Source: a virus
Strand: one strand, 5' to 3'
UHGV virus genome: UHGV-0034108
DNA: 64,000 bases
Part shown: piece by piece, positions 10,932-46,324 of the stretch
How the letters are laid out: each line of letters starts with the position of its first letter
How positions within the stretch are numbered: the stretch's first letter is position 1
Program-made: the position numbers and the translations under genes
The notes under the pieces: model-generated
What the model was told of the DNA's origin: nothing
The model's input: only the letters and a program-made list of their open reading frames with translations
Database searches by the model: none

Positions 10932-11276
10932 ATGGAACAAAATAAAAGAATAAGCACAATATCTTCTATGTGTGAGAAGATTAAAGGTTTTCTGAAAAAG
11001 GTGTGGGCTGTCTTGACTGCAACCTATAAGTGGATTACAGGATTTGGAGCCGATAAGTACATACACTTTATCGCAGGAATTGTCATTACTGCTGCGGTTG
11101 CTTTCATACCACACTTCGCTCCGTTTGCTCTTACTGCTGGAGTTGTCGCGGGTGTAGTGAAGGAATGTATAGACCATTTATGTGGAAAAGGATTTGACGA
11201 GACAGATCTATTCGCAACTATATTAGGATCTGCCTTGGCTCAGATTTGTATCTGGATTTATCTTATAATATTCTAA
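10932..11276 (+). CDS. small multi-pass membrane protein (holin candidate)
   Basis: 114 aa, 2-3 hydrophobic segments, immediately upstream of endolysin. Confidence 0.45.
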   Translation: MEQNKRISTISSMCEKIKGFLKKVWAVLTATYKWITGFGADKYIHFIAGIVITAAVAFIPHFAPFALTAGVVAGVVKECIDHLCGKGFDETDLFATILGSALAQICIWIYLIIF

Positions 11277-11280
11277 CATT

Positions 11281-11754
11281 ATGGATTGGATTCAGATATT
11301 GACATTGATTTTAGGGTTTCTCGGTGGAGGTGGGGGGTTAACTGCCCTTGTCACTATCAGGTCGCAACAGAAGAAAGCAGGAGCGGATGCAGATAATGCA
11401 GCAATCACAGCTCTGAACAATGCTATTACTACAATGACAGGAATAGATAATGACAAGGACAGGGAAATTGCTGATTTGAAAACTGAGAACTCCGGGTTGC
11501 GTACTCAGATAGGTGACTTGCAGAAACAGATTGCCGACAAGCGTTGCGAGTGTACGACAAAGAGTTACTACATGTGTGTACACCAAGGTTGTGTACTTCG
11601 ACGTCCGTCATTGGGTCGTGGTAAGAATTACTTTTCAGAGCATTGGCAGGATGCTGATTTCGGAGCAGACTTCTATACTGTTGAGGAGCTTCTTGATGAA
11701 TATAGAAAGAATAACGTATTAAAACTTATAGAACACAATGGGAACGATAAGTAA
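11281..11754 (+). CDS. membrane-anchored coiled-coil protein, lysis-associated
   Basis: N-terminal TM (ILTLILGFLGGGGGLTALV), then coiled coil; overlaps endolysin start. Confidence 0.4.
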   Translation: MDWIQILTLILGFLGGGGGLTALVTIRSQQKKAGADADNAAITALNNAITTMTGIDNDKDREIADLKTENSGLRTQIGDLQKQIADKRCECTTKSYYMCVHQGCVLRRPSLGRGKNYFSEHWQDADFGADFYTVEELLDEYRKNNVLKLIEHNGNDK

Positions 11755-13234
11755 AAATTTCTCTTATGCGGAGTTTGAAAAGACGGACGTACCTGGAATG
11801 CAGGTGAAGAATACGATAACATCAGTGGATGTCCGTGATAGTATCAAAGAACTCGTTGATACTGTTATACAGCCGCTCAGAGATGCGTGGGGAAAGCCTC
11901 TCGCTATCAACAGCGGCTACAGATGTCCGGAAGTAAATCAAGCTGTTGGAGGTGTTCCTACCTCACAACATTGCTTTGACACAGATACGGAAATTCTGAC
12001 AAACAACGGTTGGAAGACAAGTACTACAATTTCAATCGAAGATTTGGTATATACATATAGTTTTAGTTATGGAAGCATAGAACTCAAAGCGATTAACGAA
12101 ATTATACATAAACCATTTGTCGGTGAATTATATCACATCAAAAACAAACATCTTGATGTGATGTGTACCGATAAACATAATGTTATTGTTCGTTATGATA
12201 ATCATAAGTATCAACGCAAGGGAGTGAATAAAATTACGGCAGAAGGGCAGGCTTATTTTGATTCACTGAAAACCAATAATGATCAATTTCATCTTGAAAA
12301 AATGGAAGAGGTCGCGGGCAAAAGGCGACATTTCATGACTTGTGGCTACACGTCCGAAACTACAGACTATGATGTTATGTTTATGAAGTTCGTGATGGCG
12401 GTTGTGGCTGATGGCTACTTCGGTTTCCATTGTGGTAAGACGCCGTACATCGGCTTTCATGTTAAGAAGGAGAGAAAAATAACATACCTCAAAGTCTTGA
12501 TGAAATTGAATGGGATAAAATATTCAGTCAGAAGAGAAAAGGATGGCACTTATTATTTCTATATCGGAAAATCAGTTGCTGACAAGGTATTGGAAATCAT
12601 AGGCAAGAAAAAGAACATCCCTTATTATATTCTAAAGGCAGACGTTAGGACATTACGTGAACTGGTTGGTACATATACTTTTTTTGATGGACATTGTGAT
12701 ATACGTCACGGCAATATTGGTATTAGTATATCTACTGTAAATGCAAATAACGCCTCTGTTTTGCAGGCAATGTGTGTGCTGTCAGGTATGCGCTGTATAT
12801 TATCATCAAAAATACCGGAATTGGGGAGTATCAGAGGCGTGCAGATAAAAACTGCACAACGAGTATATAGTTTGTCAATCTGTCCAGATAAAATAAGTAG
12901 CAAGTTCAAGGAAGATAGTTTTAAGAAGGTCCATTACAGTGGGGAGGTTTGGTGTATTCGAGACGATAATGACACCGTCATCGTTCGCAGGAATGGCAAG
13001 GTTTCTTTGCAGGGGAATTGTAAGGGCGAGGCAGCAGACGTGTGTCCGTTCGGAAGAAATGGTAGTGGCAATGTAGATGTCATCAGACAGCTTGCACAGA
13101 AAGCATCTGAATTGAAACTCCCATTCGATCAGATGATTCTCTATCCTACGTTTGTTCATTTCTCACACAAGAAGAATGGCACTCAAAGAGGACAAATACT
13201 TTATAACAAAAGATATACAGGAAAGAAACTATGA
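11738..13234 (+). CDS. peptidase M15 family endolysin precursor containing an intein
   Basis: Exteins join to ..TSQH|CKGEAADV.. = SxHxxGxAxD zinc motif plus downstream FVHFSH; 349-aa insert between. Confidence 0.75.
   Translation: MGTISKNFSYAEFEKTDVPGMQVKNTITSVDVRDSIKELVDTVIQPLRDAWGKPLAINSGYRCPEVNQAVGGVPTSQHCFDTDTEILTNNGWKTSTTISIEDLVYTYSFSYGSIELKAINEIIHKPFVGELYHIKNKHLDVMCTDKHNVIVRYDNHKYQRKGVNKITAEGQAYFDSLKTNNDQFHLEKMEEVAGKRRHFMTCGYTSETTDYDVMFMKFVMAVVADGYFGFHCGKTPYIGFHVKKERKITYLKVLMKLNGIKYSVRREKDGTYYFYIGKSVADKVLEIIGKKKNIPYYILKADVRTLRELVGTYTFFDGHCDIRHGNIGISISTVNANNASVLQAMCVLSGMRCILSSKIPELGSIRGVQIKTAQRVYSLSICPDKISSKFKEDSFKKVHYSGEVWCIRDDNDTVIVRRNGKVSLQGNCKGEAADVCPFGRNGSGNVDVIRQLAQKASELKLPFDQMILYPTFVHFSHKKNGTQRGQILYNKRYTGKKL
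11972..13018 (+). mobile_element. intein with LAGLIDADG homing endonuclease domain
   Basis: Starts CFDTDTEILT (block A), TDKH (block B), LAGLIDADG-like VMAVVADGYF and LVGTYTFFDGHC, ends ..NGKVSLQGN followed by Cys+1. Confidence 0.75.
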
Positions 13235-13343: not shown

Positions 13344-13739
13344 ATGAAAGATTTTATTGAATTTCTGTTATGGCTGCATCAGTTGCCACAAACTACACTC
13401 GGATATATTCTGAGATTGTTTTACAAGGGAACAGACAAGTTGTATCATTCTGGAAAGTGCGATGTGATAGTCCGTCGTTCTTCTAAAATGGGCGGAGGTA
13501 TTTCACTTGGTCAGTTCGTCATTATCAGTCAATGGTCAAAGTCAAATACAGTAAAACACGAGCTTGGGCATTGTATTCAATCTCAATATCTCGGATGGCT
13601 GTACCTTATAGTTATTGGCTTGCCGTCAATCGTATGGGCCATGTTATATAGTATTCCATCTATATATAAGAAGTGGTCATATTATGACTTTTATACAGAA
13701 CGCTGGGCAGATAAACTCGGAGGAGTAGTAAGAAAATGA
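13344..13739 (+). CDS. small membrane protein with HExxH (HELGH) motif
   Basis: 131 aa; KHELGHCIQS followed by TM segment LYLIVIGLPSIVWAMLY. Confidence 0.45.
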   Translation: MKDFIEFLLWLHQLPQTTLGYILRLFYKGTDKLYHSGKCDVIVRRSSKMGGGISLGQFVIISQWSKSNTVKHELGHCIQSQYLGWLYLIVIGLPSIVWAMLYSIPSIYKKWSYYDFYTERWADKLGGVVRK

Positions 13740-17649: not shown

Positions 17650-17765
17650 CTCGAAAAAATTTAGTTAAAGATAATAAAAAAGTGTGTCATTTTGCAGAAT
17701 ACTATGCAGATACTTTTCAAATTGTCCGTAAGTTTCTGATTTAGAACTTGCAAATTTTTTAGAAC

Positions 17766-17816
17766 TTATGCTTTGCAAGCAGAGGGTCGTCGGTTCGAAT
17801 CCGTCTATCTCCACCA
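17766..17816 (+). tRNA. 3' fragment of a tRNA-Ala(TGC)-like gene (attachment-site core), not a complete tRNA
   Basis: Anticodon stem-loop ..ugcUUUGCAAgca.., T-arm GTCGG-TTCGAAT-CCGTC, acceptor 3' strand + A73 + CCA; U70 permits G3:U70; no 5' acceptor strand upstream. Confidence 0.55.
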
Positions 17817-17986
17817 AACAAGGTAATATCAGTCAATTAGTAAAACATTTATGTTACACAAATTGACTGGTTTGTCGTGTTTTATTTTTATCTCATGTGC
17901 CTTAAAACCGTTCTTATCACTATGCAGAAAACTATGCAGAATTTTGTCTACAAAATTATATCTTTGCAGGCAAAAAATTTTAGAAC

Positions 17987-19224
17987 ATGGCTGCAACAAG
18001 ATTTTTCCTCGATATGAGAGGAAAGGCTAAGGATGGAAAAGGCTCCGTCCTTATTTCGCTTTATCACAACACAAGTACTACTACATTCGGCACGGGAATC
18101 CGCATTCATCCCGATAATTGGTGTGACGGAAGGATAACGGGAGTTCCGGGAGCCGAGGTACTTAATGCCAGTCTTAATGAGCAGAAGACAAAAATTGACA
18201 AGAAGATAGCATTATTATCAATGGAGCCTTCCTTTTTCAGCATGACTGCCTCACAAATAAAAAAGAGTATAGCGGAAGAAAAGCCTAAAAAGACCTATGG
18301 ACATCCTGTATCTGCTGTGTTTGATGAATATGTAGAAACAGGACATCTGAAAGACGGAACTAAATCTATATACAAAAGTACACTGAAAAAAGTTCTGTCT
18401 TTTTCTGGAACTACCGTCTGCATGGAAACTATGGATTTGCGTTGGCTTAGAAATTTTGATAATTACTTGTCAAAAACTCAGGGTATAAACGGTAAGGCAA
18501 TTTATCTTCGTGCTTTACGTGCCGTATTTAATTATGCAAAACATACTGGAATCATATCACACTATCCGTTTGATACCTTTTCAATACGGCACGAGGAAAC
18601 ACGTAAACGTAGTATTACCGTTGAGCAATTACGATTGTTTTATAACAAGGAAACTTCATTGCAGAATCAAATGTATAGAGATTACTTTTTTCTGATGTTT
18701 TTCCTTATTGGAATCAATGCAAAGGATTTGCTTCTTGCCAAAAAAGTCAAGTAAACAACGGTCGTTTTGAATATACAAGAGCTAAGACAAATAAGAGATA
18801 CACTATCCGAATTGAACCGGAAGCTGAAGAGCTTATACTGAAACATAGCGGAAAGTCAGATTATCTTCTCGATGCTATGGATCACTGCGTTCATTATAAT
18901 AGCTTCATGCGGGAGATAAATGAAGCCATCCAATCTGTAGGTGATGTTGTTGAGGAGTATTTACCGGATGAAAATGATTTGTTTGCAGAACCTAAACTCA
19001 TTAGACATATACAGCCAATAATACCGGACATAACAACATATTATGCCCGACATACGTGGGCAACATTTGCCCACAAATTAGATATTTCATCAGATATTAT
19101 TGCTCTCGCTCTTGGACATTCACCTACAAATAGGACGACATTTATTTATATCAAACCAGATTTGAAGAAGGTTGATGAAGCAAACCGAAAAGTGATAGAT
19201 TATTTTTTCGGAAAATCAATATAG
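17987..19224 (+). pseudogene. int: tyrosine integrase, disrupted by frameshift at A6 run (18740..18745)
   Basis: ORF 17987..18754 (N-terminal/core-binding) continues in +2 frame from 18739 into ORF 18877..19224 (RHTWATF..LGHS..TTFIYI catalytic region); one extra A would restore about 410-aa protein. Confidence 0.7.
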
Positions 19225-26190: not shown

Positions 26191-26805
26191 TTAATGAATC
26201 CAATGATCTCCTATACTTGCTTCTGCCGGAATAGGAAGTTTCTTATAGTATTTTGCTGCTGCTTTTGCCATGATATCTTGCATAACTTTGGCAAAATCTT
26301 CTGCAATTTCTTTTGGACATTCGCAGTCACATTCATCGTGGACCATAACACAGAACAATATAATTCCAAAGTAGCCATGTTTGACTATCCACTCAAAAAG
26401 GTCTGCGGCAGCTTGTTTAAGCACAATGGCACTACCTCCCTGTATAGGATAGTTGAGCACATTCTTTCCAAACCAGTCATGTCCTTGTCGTAGGTGTTTG
26501 ACAACCATCTGTGCAATATCATCACCTGTCCCTTTATGATATAGGTTATAATCCTGCATAAATCGCCAATCAATTCTGTCCTCAACAGCACGCCATTCTG
26601 CCCATTGAGGCCAATAAACCCTATGACCGGTGGTACTGTTGATGACAATATACCCATGCTTTGCAACGAAATCAGACGCCTCTTTCTTGAATTTAGCCAT
26701 ACCAGGCATACCTTTAAGAAGATTTTGGACCATTTCTCTTGCTTTATCTATAGACATGCCTATATTTGCTGATATTGATGTGCCATCAGAACCATATCCT
26801 ACTGC
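26191..26805 (-). CDS. DNA polymerase I family (family A) exon 2
   Basis: AVGYGSDG..(motif B continuation), NYPIQGGSA, motif C VMVHDE; aligns with Taq pol motif B/C region. Confidence 0.7.
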   Translation of the reverse strand, partial: AVGYGSDGTSISANIGMSIDKAREMVQNLLKGMPGMAKFKKEASDFVAKHGYIVINSTTGHRVYWPQWAEWRAVEDRIDWRFMQDYNLYHKGTGDDIAQMVVKHLRQGHDWFGKNVLNYPIQGGSAIVLKQAAADLFEWIVKHGYFGIILFCVMVHDECDCECPKEIAEDFAKVMQDIMAKAAAKYYKKLPIPAEASIGDHWIH

Positions 26806-28037
26806 CATTTTGTTATCTTAAAAGCTCTTTATCTTTTAATTCTATATGTTTCCATATAGTTCAGACTATATCATCATCCTCATATTGAGGAGTCGAGCAC
26901 TCGTGTTCCCATTATTAAGTGAGCTTTTCAGGGATTAGTCGTTGAACCTTCTATCTACTTTTATGCTCTTCGATAGCTTGGCTGCTGATTACCGTAGATT
27001 TCTCCTTAGGCTTCCAGCAATTCACTCGATTTGCTACACGAAATTACTTTCGTGAGGTTCACTAAATTCTGATATTTATATTCATGACAATAGTAAGGAT
27101 TTGCATATAAGTAATGAAGAAGAAGTGTTAAATTGGTTTTATCATAAACAAATAAAGTATAGCAGTCTTTAGTGTTCAGACGGACAGTACTTTTTATGCC
27201 GTATGATTCAAGAAAAGTTTGAATGCGTAAAAGCCATTGTTTTGAACATGACTTTAATCCCCAACGATAATGACCGCAAGTTCCGTCTCCATCAAAATAG
27301 CCACGAATCATGTCCCATGTTATATCTATACATGGATTCAGATTGTGATGTTTTTTTGAAGCAATATTTAATGTGGCGGAGAACCAGTCTGCTATTTGCT
27401 TTGAATTTATACTTGCATTGTACATATAATGCATTTCACCACATTGTGTTGTGTAAGGTCTGCTAAATATGGAAACTCCATTTCCAAACCAGTCCTTATA
27501 CTTCAATACCACATATTCTTTTCCTGAATAAAGCACTATGCGATGAGAACGTGATGTATTTGTTATATGTCCATCTGCGAATATATATCCTAACCAATAA
27601 TTAGCCTCTATTGTGTTGTTTGCAAACTTATTTTCCCATGTATTATTTCTGCCAGAGCCACGCATCTGCAATCCGAGTCTATGTACATGCCAAGTTATAG
27701 TACTGCTTTTGATGTTAAAAGCGTTACCAATTTCTTGATATGTGCAGTTAGAATAATACATTTGTGTGAATAAGTCATCTTGTTCTTTTGACCAACTTTT
27801 TTCTTCTTCTCGTGTTCTTTTTATGTTATTCCTTACTAATACATCATATACAGTAGTGACGGAACATGAATATTTATCTTGAAGTTCTTTCCAAGACATA
27901 CCGTTAGCATAATCAGCTATAAGTGCAGTATCATTTACTTTTTTCATATTTATTTTTTTGCAAGTTTAGTTGATTTAGACTTCCGTATTCTTGTTCAAAA
28001 TAAATCACTTACTGTTTATAAATCATTTTGTTAATGT
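26806..28037 (-). mobile_element. group I intron (inferred) carrying LAGLIDADG homing endonuclease, inserted in polA motif B
   Basis: Exon1 stops 4 codons after ..RQKAKSAEF; exon2 resumes with AVGYG; free-standing endonuclease ORF between; splice sites after U (..GAGUUU) and after G (..AAAAUG) fit group I rules; boundaries +/- few nt. Confidence 0.55.
27006..27947 (-). CDS. LAGLIDADG homing endonuclease (intron-encoded) with N-terminal HTH domains
   Basis: LGYIFADGHIT and IRGYFDGDGTCG motifs; two HTH-like segments at N-terminus. Confidence 0.8.
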   Translation of the reverse strand: MKKVNDTALIADYANGMSWKELQDKYSCSVTTVYDVLVRNNIKRTREEEKSWSKEQDDLFTQMYYSNCTYQEIGNAFNIKSSTITWHVHRLGLQMRGSGRNNTWENKFANNTIEANYWLGYIFADGHITNTSRSHRIVLYSGKEYVVLKYKDWFGNGVSIFSRPYTTQCGEMHYMYNASINSKQIADWFSATLNIASKKHHNLNPCIDITWDMIRGYFDGDGTCGHYRWGLKSCSKQWLLRIQTFLESYGIKSTVRLNTKDCYTLFVYDKTNLTLLLHYLYANPYYCHEYKYQNLVNLTKVISCSKSSELLEA

Positions 28038-29501
28038 AAACTCGGCGGATTTGGCTTTTTGCCGCAAGTCTGGTCTCAATTTCTTGACATCATGGACATC
28101 TACATCCTTCAGCTCATCCGGAAAACATAGTTTAGCATAGAGATTATGAGTATCTATACCGTGTGCAAAGGCATCGAGGAGTTTCTTTTCGTTCCACACA
28201 TCTGCCTGTACACGCGACTCCTCAGCGGAGAAATCACAGGATATGAATAAGTTACCTTTTTCCGCTATGAAGCAAGAACGACATACCTTACCATATTCAT
28301 CTCGTGCTGGAAGATTCTGTAAGTTTACAAATTTTACCTGTTCTGGAAGAAGTACCTTCAATCTTGCAAGGTCAACATTGTTCTTATTGCTTCCGCAGGA
28401 CATTCGTCCAGTCACAGTACCAATTTGCTTGAACTCGGTGTGAAGTCGTCCTGTATTTGGATTGATAAGATTCAGGTGTCCTTGCCCATAAGATGTGACA
28501 TTCTTCTCAGCGCCCTTATAGCCGTAATAGAGTTCAAGAAAATCATCAGCAATTCCTTTCTGTGTAATTATCAAATTTTCCAATGCAGAGTCACGCTCTT
28601 CCTTAGTTTTCTTATCACGTGTAGTGGTATTGAATCCCAAAGCTTGCATTACAGGTATTACTTGACGGGAACTACTCCATTGTACAAACACATCGGGAAG
28701 TGCGTTATCTGTAGGCTCAAAAAGTGAAGGTTGTGTTACTGAAGATACAAATTGCTTGTTGAGTTTCGTATTTGACCTAACGTAATCATCAAGTTTCTGT
28801 TTGTAATCTTCAAGCTCCTTCTTGTCACTTTCCATCTTTGCCTTCCACTGAACTTCATCGAGCTTCACTCCACACCATTCGAGATATGCTATTGCAGGAA
28901 CAAATCTATTTTCTACAATAAAAGCACGAAGGCAATTACGATTTTCCGCAACAATCATTTGCGCTTTTCTGATATCTTGCAGGTACATGACATCATGTGC
29001 AGCATAGATAATACCCTCCGGTGTCAGTCCTTTAAGAGCAATTTCTTCCTGAAAGGATTTGTCTATAACAATTCCTGTATTGCGTTCAAGAACATCTCCG
29101 AGATTGAACGACACTATACCTGGCTTATAACCAAGATAGAGTGTTTGTTCGCAGATCATCGTATCATAAACACGCAACGGTATAATTTTGTGATTATACA
29201 GAAACTTGAGGTCAAATTTGAGATTATGTCCAATCAGATATGAGTTTTCAATAATCCCCTTGTACTCTTCCGGCTTGACAGATAGACAGTCTACAACTAT
29301 TGCAGTAGTCTCACCGGAATTAAAATCTTTATAACCAAACTGCATTGACGTAAGAGTGTTTACATGACAATCAAGTCCTGTTGTTTCAGTATCGAACTGT
29401 ACTACAGGCCAACCACGAATGAGGTCTATGCTTTCCTGCACAGTCAAAGGGCTTACATTCTCATCCGAAATGTCAAGCCTGTCACTAACGAGATAAATCA
29501 T
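28038..29501 (-). CDS. DNA polymerase I family (family A) exon 1: 3'-5' exonuclease plus polymerase motif A and start of motif B
   Basis: Exo I FDTETTGL; motif A ISCDFSAEESRV; ends RQKAKSAEF (motif B R..AK...F). Confidence 0.75.
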
Positions 29502-45295: not shown

Positions 45296-46324
45296 ATGAT
45301 TACGCAATGTTATACCTAAACTCGTTTTTATAAGCCAAGGCAGCGACCACGAGCCTATCAAAGAGTTTGTCTCCGAATGTCCTGCGGTTGAACTTGTAGC
45401 AGAACTCGTTCAGATAGCTTTGAAGGTAGTCGGGTCTGATGTCGTGATAGACGTCCAGCAGGAGCCGTTTTGCGTTGCTGATTGCGATATGAACCCACGG
45501 GAGTAGCTTACCGACCTGCTTTGGCTCTATGACCTGATGCACGTGTTTACTTACGAGTGACTTTATATTTGTATATGACGTTGAATCGTCAGAAGTTATG
45601 GTTGAACTTGGATTGACATACATCCTCACCTTTCCGTCAATGGTTTCCGACTTGAGATCGTTGATGACGAGCATCTTGATGTGCTTGACTGCGGTAGGCT
45701 TGTCGGAGGTTTTCTTCTGAGTCCCATCGGAGGTCTCGGCCAGGACGAGGACCGCAGTTTTCTTCTGGCTTCCGCGCCCGCGTTTCTGCGGCTCGTCCTT
45801 CTTGCCCTCAGGGGTCTCGGTGGAGAAGAACCCCTCGTCCATCTCCACTATCCCACACACCTGGTATTGCGCGTCCCGCTTGCCCATGATACTCCGAAGC
45901 TTATGAAGCATCGCCCAGATTGGCATATAGTTCTTGTGACCCAGCTGACGCTGGAGCTCCGATGCGGAGAAACTCTTCCGCGTCGAGGTGAGCAGGTGCA
46001 TCGCCGTGAACCAGTACATCAGTGGCAGTTGGCTGCCGTGCATTACCGTATTCGCCTTCAGGCTCTGGCGGTAATGGCAGCCCTTGCACTCGAAGCATTT
46101 CTTATCCTTCTTCCAATAGTGCTCCGTGCAGCCACACTTTGGACAGACAACGCCCTGCTTCTCCCTGTATTCCCTAAGCTTGTTCTCGCAGCTTTCCTCA
46201 TTGGGAAACTCCTGCATAAAGTCTATAAGTTTCATTGTATCTTCGTTTGTTGGGACAAAGATACTGTTCGACTGTGCAAAAACGCTGCGCAAGTTATGAC
46301 TTAGGTATAACATTAATTATTCAT
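45296..46324 (-). mobile_element. IS1595-family insertion sequence
   Basis: Perfect 14-bp inverted repeats AATGTTATACCTAA at 45306..45319 and (rc) 46305..46318, extended imperfect IR to about 24 bp; single transposase ORF. Confidence 0.7.
45300..46235 (-). CDS. IS1595-family DDE transposase with N-terminal zinc ribbon
   Basis: CPKCGCTEHYWKKDKKCFECKGC zinc ribbon; likely start at Met27 MKLIDFMQEF inside the IR. Confidence 0.7.
   Translation of the reverse strand: MKLIDFMQEFPNEESCENKLREYREKQGVVCPKCGCTEHYWKKDKKCFECKGCHYRQSLKANTVMHGSQLPLMYWFTAMHLLTSTRKSFSASELQRQLGHKNYMPIWAMLHKLRSIMGKRDAQYQVCGIVEMDEGFFSTETPEGKKDEPQKRGRGSQKKTAVLVLAETSDGTQKKTSDKPTAVKHIKMLVINDLKSETIDGKVRMYVNPSSTITSDDSTSYTNIKSLVSKHVHQVIEPKQVGKLLPWVHIAISNAKRLLLDVYHDIRPDYLQSYLNEFCYKFNRRTFGDKLFDRLVVAALAYKNEFRYNIA

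Follow-up and report, generated by a model that had tools for sequence, protein, structure and literature searches.

The virus genome UHGV-0034108 was analyzed as one stretch of 64,000 nucleotides, a single strand read 5' to 3', which we refer to as the window. At 11738..13234 it encodes a peptidase of the M15 family, a putative endolysin, whose zinc-binding motif is split by an insert of 349 amino acids (aa). An earlier note on this DNA, made from the sequence alone, had taken the insert for an intein with a LAGLIDADG endonuclease; every residue it quoted was found at its place in the translation of the open reading frame (ORF), and the boundaries it gave, 11972-13018, proved exact when the junctions were aligned with contigs lacking the insert. 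The parts of the precursor are listed below; conservation refers, here and throughout, to 71 aligned intein-bearing M15 proteins of 25-75% identity.

11738..13234, + strand: precursor ORF, 498 aa, 56.5 kDa, with N-extein, intein and C-extein in one uninterrupted frame; stop codon included
11738..11971, + strand: N-extein, 78 aa, first half of the peptidase M15_3 domain (Pfam PF08291, E 2e-12), ending in Ser76-Gln-His78
11969-11971, + strand: His78, zinc ligand 1 and residue -1 of the intein, aligned to the SRH of 1LBU; invariant
11972..13018, + strand: intein, 349 aa, 40.0 kDa, class-1 type with a nested LAGLIDADG homing endonuclease; coincides exactly with the gap in syntenic intein-less contigs
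11972..12001, + strand: block A, CFDTDTEILT, whose Cys1 (C79, 11972-11974) is the N-terminal nucleophile
12167..12178, + strand: core of block B, Thr144-Asp-Lys-His147 (TxxH); H147 invariant, T144 at least 90% conserved
12335..12817, + strand: LAGLIDADG (DOD) homing-endonuclease domain, residues ~200-360, placed by conservation and Foldseek matches
12410-12412, + strand: Asp225 of LAGLIDADG motif 1, ..VMAVVADGY; D225 and G226 invariant
12686-12688, + strand: Asp317 of LAGLIDADG motif 2, ..LVGTYTFFDGH; D317 and G318 at least 90% conserved
12944..12988, + strand: block F, EVWCIRDDNDTVIVR, placed by hidden Markov model (HMM) alignment to the Mja KlbA intein
12953-12955, + strand: Cys406, at position F:4 of block F; at least 90% conserved
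12998..13021, + strand: block G, KVSLQGN plus Cys+1, with the penultimate Gly426; G426 and N427 invariant
13016-13018, + strand: Asn427, terminal residue of the intein (..GKVSLQGN427); invariant
13019-13021, + strand: Cys428, the Cys+1; at least 90% conserved
13019..13231, + strand: C-extein, 71 aa, starting CKGEAAD; the M15_3 and 1LBU alignments cross the junction
13037-13039, + strand: Asp434, zinc ligand 2, at position +7; invariant
13157-13159, + strand: His474, zinc ligand 3, in FVHFSH; at least 90% conserved

Excision of the insert in silico joins the two exteins to a protein of 149 aa with a computed mass of 16.5 kDa. On the intact precursor the Pfam profile Peptidase_M15_3 (PF08291) covers residues 28-82 only, with 47.5 bits; once residues 79-427 are deleted the score rises to 63.9 bits and one alignment spans the junction, both values exceeding the curated cut-off of 23.2 bits. 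The comparison of the spliced extein with intein-free M15 peptidases, which had been proposed as a check, gave alignments with natural proteins of 149 aa and with the zinc D-Ala-D-Ala carboxypeptidase of Streptomyces albus (1LBU), in which SQH/CKGEAAD pairs with SRHMYGHAAD, unbroken through the SxHxxGxAxD signature. The intein lies directly after the codon of the zinc ligand His78 and six residues ahead of the zinc ligand Asp434: The zinc motif, His-x6-Asp with a downstream His, is present in the M15 extein and becomes contiguous only after splicing. The spliced extein also matches PHROG 894, annotated as "endolysin" (E 2e-30), and from its family membership and the gene order described below it can reasonably be inferred that the M15_3 protein, a zinc hydrolase of the LAS type, is a phage endolysin.

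Intein-less alleles, for which a search had been recommended in the earlier note, are present in near-identical phages. The in silico spliced extein has more than 2,700 homologs, the best of which are exactly 149 aa long and 98-99% identical to it; two residues are different in P0123 and three in P0124, and in each Thr stands for Cys79 as numbered along the spliced protein. Three syntenic contigs without the intein (L001, L002, and L005) match the window with 95-99% identity as far as 11971 and take up the match again at 13021. The gene order of L001 is that of the window (portal, tail fiber, 114-aa gene, 157-aa gene, M15, 131-aa gene, 165-aa gene); the shorter L002 and L005 cover the genes around M15, likewise ordered as in the window. 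The empty site reads ..TCA CAA CAT / ACT AAG GGC GAG.. (in a longer stretch, ..CCTACCTCACAACATACTAAGGGCGAGGCAGCAGAC..), and the occupied site ..TCA CAA CAT / TGC TTT..(1047 nt)..GGG AAT / TGT AAG GGC GAG... Near-isogenic empty alleles are in circulation within this phage lineage. With the profile scores, the natural 149-aa proteins, and the DNA alignments, the insertion is much more than a product of chance. The Cys+1 had been placed correctly at the start of the C-extein, but the extein does not natively carry it: In the 120 best intein-less homologs Thr is the usual residue at +1, Ser or Val are the alternatives, and Cys is a rarity. The codon for Cys+1 is part of the allele with the intein and travels along with it.

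The insert is homologous to inteins in unrelated hosts, namely ThyX, the ribonucleotide reductase (RNR) subunits NrdA and NrdB, a PurD/GARS-type protein, RNase HII, RpoB, RtcB, and DNA polymerase. A HMMER search with the insert returned 4,728 cluster representatives at E<=1e-3, of which 631 remain at E<=1e-10; judged by their junction motifs, 17 of the 150 best matches have M15 hosts. A family profile built from 10 sequences was needed to connect the insert to inteins of solved structure, because a single-sequence phmmer search of the intein against the Protein Data Bank (PDB) gave only noise (LSm3 and MarR, at E ~1); the profile reached the AceL NrdHF intein with E 2.5e-5, followed by Mja KlbA, PI-PkoII, and TliVMA. 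An AlphaFold2 model of the insert, made with the family alignment, has a predicted local distance difference test (pLDDT) score of 89.1. Its best Foldseek matches in the PDB are TliVMA, PI-SceI, PI-PfuI, and PhoVMA (E 3e-18 to 1e-13), and next after these inteins come the LAGLIDADG enzymes I-DmoI, I-Tsp061I, and I-SceI. Against the viral models of BFVD, the best match of the fold search is the homolog from phage cr53_1, followed by intein-bearing polymerases, RNRs, terminases, and portals; a megablast search of the region against GenBank phages gave no match. The original call of an intein with a LAGLIDADG endonuclease is borne out by the homology to inteins in unrelated hosts, by the family profile, and by the fold matches of the AlphaFold model.

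The insertion is shared by a family: About 70 clusters of proteins of 470-510 aa combine M15 with an insert at the same site. Invariant in the aligned set are His78, Cys79, Thr84, Glu85, Leu87, Thr88, His147, Asp225, Gly226, Trp405, Gly426, Asn427, and Asp434, whereas conservation is at least 90% for Thr144, Asp317, Gly318, Cys406, Thr413, Cys428 (replaced by Ser in P0054 and P0076), and His474. Among the features of a class-1 intein, a Cys1 nucleophile, the block-B Thr-x-x-His, and a C-terminal Asn followed by Cys or Ser at +1 are found, as are the motifs and fold of a LAGLIDADG endonuclease, with two motifs that each hold a catalytic acidic residue and a fold that matches known enzymes. A non-splicing domain without Cys1 and the Asn-Cys+1 pair, which had been named beforehand as the case that would overturn the call, is excluded by the invariant or nearly invariant Cys1, Gly-Asn, and Cys. 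We conclude that a true class-1 intein, with a LAGLIDADG endonuclease of the homing type, occupies the H-x6-D zinc motif of a putative M15 endolysin.

As the intein stands between His78 and Asp434, the 56.5-kDa precursor is translated with its catalytic H-x6-D...H zinc site split. We infer that the element is very probably an ordinary selfish homing intein whose obligatory protein splicing would rebuild the active site of the endolysin. Cys1 would form a thioester at the His78-Cys79 bond, trans-thioesterification would move the N-extein onto Cys+1, cyclization of Asn427 would free the 40-kDa intein, and an S-to-N shift would link ..TSQH to CKGEAAD.., giving the active enzyme of 149 aa (16.5 kDa). 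Where phages infect a cell together, or a phage meets a prophage, the freed intein would then act as the homing endonuclease and cut alleles without an intein around CAACAT/ACTAAGGGCGAGGC; repair would copy the intein in and take along flanking extein sequence, and with it the exchange of Thr for Cys at +1. The zinc ligands of the extein are kept in intein-bearing alleles, so the enzyme appears still to be needed, which requires splicing, and the kept catalytic residues of the endonuclease point to mobility that would be ongoing.

Several further observations bear on mobility. In P0013 and P0014 intein identity is 66-68% and extein identity 41-45% (P0014: 68% vs. 41%), and the relation is reversed in P0016-P0018, with 43-45% for the intein and 59-65% for the extein (P0018: 43% vs. 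65%). In P0069-P0072 the exteins are only ~20% identical, and the intein still occupies the same H/C..GN/CxGxAxD site. Differences between intein-plus and intein-minus alleles cluster near the site and fall mostly on third codon positions (11869-11917 relative to L001 and L002, 13030-13048 relative to L005), a pattern that homing with co-conversion of the flanks, or recombination, could leave. The GC content of the intein is 37.4%, that of the window 42.0%. The patchy distribution, the incongruence of intein and extein, and the clustered substitutions in the flanks can be read as signs of mobility and, indirectly, of homing.

It should be noted that a number of points weigh against this reading. 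The intein profile TIGR01445 (intein_Nterm) aligns from its model position 1 at C79 and reaches only 16.5 bits against a cut-off of 24.5, and Pfam LAGLIDADG_3 (PF14528), although found at the right place, reaches 12.8 bits against 22.5 (E 0.14); neither sub-threshold match was counted as proof. Splicing and endonuclease activity are predictions from sequence and model, and the endolysin role is deduced from family membership and gene order. The AlphaFold2 model of the extein alone, calculated for the intein-less allele from a shallow alignment (23 sequences, >80% identical), is poor (pLDDT 51) and was left out of the fold search. Finally, the residues that usually assist splicing at the C-terminus are not in place: Gly426 stands for the penultimate His (G:6), Cys406 for Asp (F:4), and Thr413 for the block-F His, as seen in the HMM alignment with the Mja KlbA intein, where VWC pairs with IYD and NTT with NHT.

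The penultimate His, the F:4 Asp, and the block-F His are common in inteins and not obligatory; as they are absent here, efficient cyclization of Asn must rely on groups other than these. According to Tori et al. (2010, PMC2807308), standard inteins usually carry Asp at F:4 and class 3 (WCT) inteins carry Cys, and phage class-1 inteins are often without the penultimate His (Kelley et al. 2016, PMC5050341); the Bethlehem recombination directionality factor (RDF) intein with a penultimate Gly splices completely, and a change of this Gly to His slows its splicing (PMC5050341). The penultimate Gly of the present intein had been remarked on as unusual. It is indeed there, but it is not peculiar to this copy, since all of the M15 family has it, as do most related inteins inspected in other hosts, and it is compatible with splicing (PMC5050341); we regard it as a trait of the clade and no argument against activity. 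The intein C-terminus varies to Ser-Asn in P0078 and P0079 and to Gly-Gln in P0084, the latter ending having been noted for the RNR inteins of phiCbK and iridovirus (PMC3556154).

Because the intein parts the zinc ligands at -1 (His) and +7 (Asp) and sets Cys1, Cys406, and Cys+1 at the splice center, a role in the control of lysis has to be considered. That zinc-, redox- or time-dependent splicing serves as a safety catch, making this a self-activating zymogen endolysin of gut Bacteroidales phages, seems unlikely. In its fuller form the idea supposes a domesticated or conditional intein, in which slow or gated splicing would act as a post-translational catch or timer that keeps the endolysin inactive until late in infection. 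Its appeal lies in an insertion exactly at the zinc site with a zinc ligand as residue -1, in the three conserved cysteines around the splice center, in the retention of the intein at one site while the exteins diverged to ~20-30% identity, and in reports of other phage inteins whose splicing rates are tuned by the penultimate residue (PMC5050341). However, near-isogenic phages, whose gene order is unchanged and whose exteins are 98-99% identical, manage without it, the catalytic residues of the homing endonuclease are conserved as expected of a selfish element, the atypical residues are common to relatives in ThyX, RNR and other hosts and so are no adaptation to lysis, and inteins in general insert into conserved active-site motifs. 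We therefore consider the domesticated intein quite improbable, and hold the gates that could be imagined for it (zinc at His-1, Cys+1, and Asp+7; a disulfide with Cys1, Cys406 or Cys+1; or kinetics) to be just as doubtful. A regulatory role is disfavored by the dispensability of the intein in the 98-99% identical alleles together with the conserved endonuclease.

Hardly tenable is the view that the insertion no longer splices, either as an intein remnant in a broken endolysin pseudogene, with lysis left to another enzyme, or as an accessory domain retained in the mature protein: The loss of both histidines that usually aid Asn cyclization, the Cys at F:4, and the sub-threshold scores of the curated intein HMMs could be taken that way, but the ORF runs undamaged through its 498 codons, the 71 sequences, some with as little as 25% identity, keep every nucleophile and the block-B TxxH, alleles with the intein show no change in the zinc ligands of the extein, the same residue set recurs in hundreds of inteins within essential enzymes, and an active LAS site is hard to square with a 40-kDa domain between the His and the Asp of H-x6-D.

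Four other candidates were rejected. A class 3 (WCT) intein, considered for the Cys at F:4, is out, as Cys1 is invariant, block B has no Trp (B:12 is Val or Leu), and G:5 is Gln and not Thr; a bacterial intein-like (BIL) or Hog domain does not agree with the homing endonuclease, the +1 nucleophile, and the precise empty site; an intron is excluded by an ORF that is continuous and in frame, and an assembly artifact by an identical protein on 37 contigs of several sources.

The intein-bearing M15 gene is set in a genome that, by its proteins, is assigned to a crAss-like phage (Bacteroidales): The major capsid protein belongs to the Crassvirus capsid family (E 1e-140) and is 51% identical to the capsids of cr126_1 and DAC15, and a portal gene is present in the window. 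The M15 gene comes after a tail-fiber gene and two genes for small membrane proteins:

10932..11276, + strand: 114-aa small membrane protein with three hydrophobic segments in its translation, a candidate holin; its PHROG matches are weak and to families without an assigned function
11281..11754, + strand: 157 aa, an N-terminal membrane anchor followed by a coiled-coil-like stretch, a candidate spanin, holin or antiholin; overlaps the M15 start by 17 nt

The gene order around the 157-aa gene is conserved in L001, L002, and L005; in the PHROG search the proteins upstream of M15 matched no recognized holin family. Directly downstream of the endolysin, a gene that is also conserved in these three contigs (13344-13739, + strand) encodes a protein of 131 aa with a HELGH (HExxH) motif and hydrophobic segments, for which no family match was obtained.

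Carriers of the intein-bearing M15 gene include the cultured Bacteroides fragilis phage BF766P4 (WAX07506.1, "hypothetical protein"), the crAss-like phage cr53_1 (NC_055889, labeled "VOG2995; phosphoesterase"), a Parabacteroides genome, where its name goes no further than D-Ala-D-Ala carboxypeptidase-family metallohydrolase, as well as Butyricimonas virosa and an assembly from Tannerellaceae; one protein from a metagenome-assembled genome is labeled "Hom-end-associated Hint". The gene of cr53_1 (L004 2872-4377) has several in-frame standard stop codons in both extein and intein parts, consistent with reports that some crAss-like phages reassign stop codons, so the intein has either entered a recoded genome or adapted to one.

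Among the relatives of the intein in other hosts, many (P0266-P0283) stand directly after a His in motifs such as GDxH/C or YGH/C, and one in BFVD is in a calcineurin-like phosphoesterase; these positions suggest a preference for metal-binding motifs. In Myoviridae sp. ctLnO19, a "TIGR02594 family protein" listed by BFVD likewise gives an intein-like match; as TIGR02594 is a family of cell-wall hydrolases, this protein may be another lysin-type host.

Other features of the window concern further mobile elements. A family-A DNA polymerase is encoded in two ORFs on the - strand, 28023-29501 (ending ..RQKAKSAEF..) and 26191-26808 (starting ..AVGYGS..), and between them lie a free-standing LAGLIDADG ORF (27006-27947; PF14528, E 7e-13) and a match to the Rfam group I intron RF00028 (26842-27087, 92 bits): The arrangement (26191-29501) suggests that this phage has a second mobile element of the self-splicing kind. 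At 45300-46313, on the - strand, the phage genome encodes a transposase of the IS1595 family (DDE_Tnp_IS1595, E 3.5e-25, with a zinc ribbon). Synteny with L001 stops at position 17820 of the window, and L001 (15039-20450) then continues into bacterial genes (fumarase, sigma-54 activator, cmk, lytB, and efp), so the crAss-like phage seems to exist as a prophage. Past the end of synteny the window encodes an integrase in two ORFs, 17987-18754 with the arm-binding and SAM-like domains and 18877-19224 with the C-terminal part. The ORF 17665-17817 translates like a tRNA fragment (..GFEPTT..) and may hold the core of an attachment (att) site; ARAGORN detected no tRNA there.

Known intein hosts are mainly proteins of replication, repair, nucleotide metabolism, and packaging, to which a probable lysis enzyme is added here, with the insertion inside a metal-binding motif. 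In crAss-like phages TerL is named as the usual intein host (Yutin et al., PMC7886860), and Payne and Hatfull (PMC3314691) state that, of 224 Lysin A genes of mycobacteriophages, not one contains an intron or an intein; the word "lysin" is absent from the mycobacteriophage intein survey (PMC5050341). Within the literature covered by full-text searches that combined intein with endolysin, lysin, peptidase M15 or crAss-like, no description of an intein in an endolysin was found, and the endolysin as an intein host appears not to have been described before. This is a family and not a one-off, with ~70 sequence clusters at the same site from crAss-like phages, BF766P4, Parabacteroides, Butyricimonas, and Tannerellaceae. 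Public records label its carriers as "hypothetical protein" or "phosphoesterase", and recognition of the intein allows a correct annotation of the endolysin in these abundant gut phages. Of mechanistic interest is a clade that presumably splices although both histidines that commonly assist are missing and F:4 is Cys. A self-activating endolysin would be a possible scaffold for conditional lysis, and with near-isogenic phages that either have or lack the intein, a test system is at hand for how inteins home in the gut virome and what this costs in fitness. The case is well supported, experimentally tractable, and somewhat unusual mechanistically; it introduces no new principle.

With PI-SceI (Sce VMA1), TliVMA/PhoVMA, and PI-PfuI, the endolysin intein shares a Hint splicing domain that is interrupted by a LAGLIDADG endonuclease. 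These inteins have the canonical His-Asn C-terminus; they are only 10-16% identical in sequence to the present one, and their hosts are the archaeal or yeast V-ATPase and RNR. Group I introns are known from the lysin genes of Streptococcus thermophilus phages and of Staphylococcus phage K/Twort, related phages being uninterrupted, and are likewise self-splicing elements of the homing type in a phage lysis gene; splicing there occurs at the RNA level, whereas the ORF of the endolysin and its intein is continuous and removal therefore has to take place at the protein level.

The intein in mycobacteriophage Bethlehem gp51 (RDF; PMC5050341) is also phage-borne and of class 1, with Cys1 and a penultimate Gly; it is found in another host protein, and the endolysin intein in addition is without the block-F His and has Cys at F:4. 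This F:4 Cys and an origin in the phage world are shared with class 3 (WCT) inteins such as that of mycobacteriophage Bethlehem DnaB (PMC2807308), which in contrast have no N-terminal nucleophile and carry a block-B Trp and a G:5 Thr. Hedgehog proteins (PMC6027127) too combine a DD-peptidase/M15-like (LAS) zinc domain with a Hint-fold domain in one polypeptide; their Hint domain is C-terminal, has no endonuclease, and brings about cholesterol-dependent cleavage without splicing, whereas that of the endolysin lies inside the zinc motif and is presumably excised. As topology and chemistry differ, we note this likeness as a curiosity only.

The closest comparison is with the inteins of ThyX (Corynebacterium phage P1201), NrdA (the T5-like Salmonella phage Shivani), NrdB, RtcB, and DNA polymerase, which are homologous over the whole 349 aa with 21-27% identity. 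They have the same block A, C[FY][DS]xxTE[VI]LT, the same nested LAGLIDADG endonuclease, and the same C-terminus, ..VRRNGKxxxxGN followed by C, S or T, with the penultimate Gly and usually Cys at F:4. The difference is in the host and in the site: Here the host is a predicted cell-wall hydrolase of the lysis module instead of an enzyme of DNA or nucleotide metabolism, and the insertion lies inside a zinc-binding motif, with a metal ligand as residue -1.

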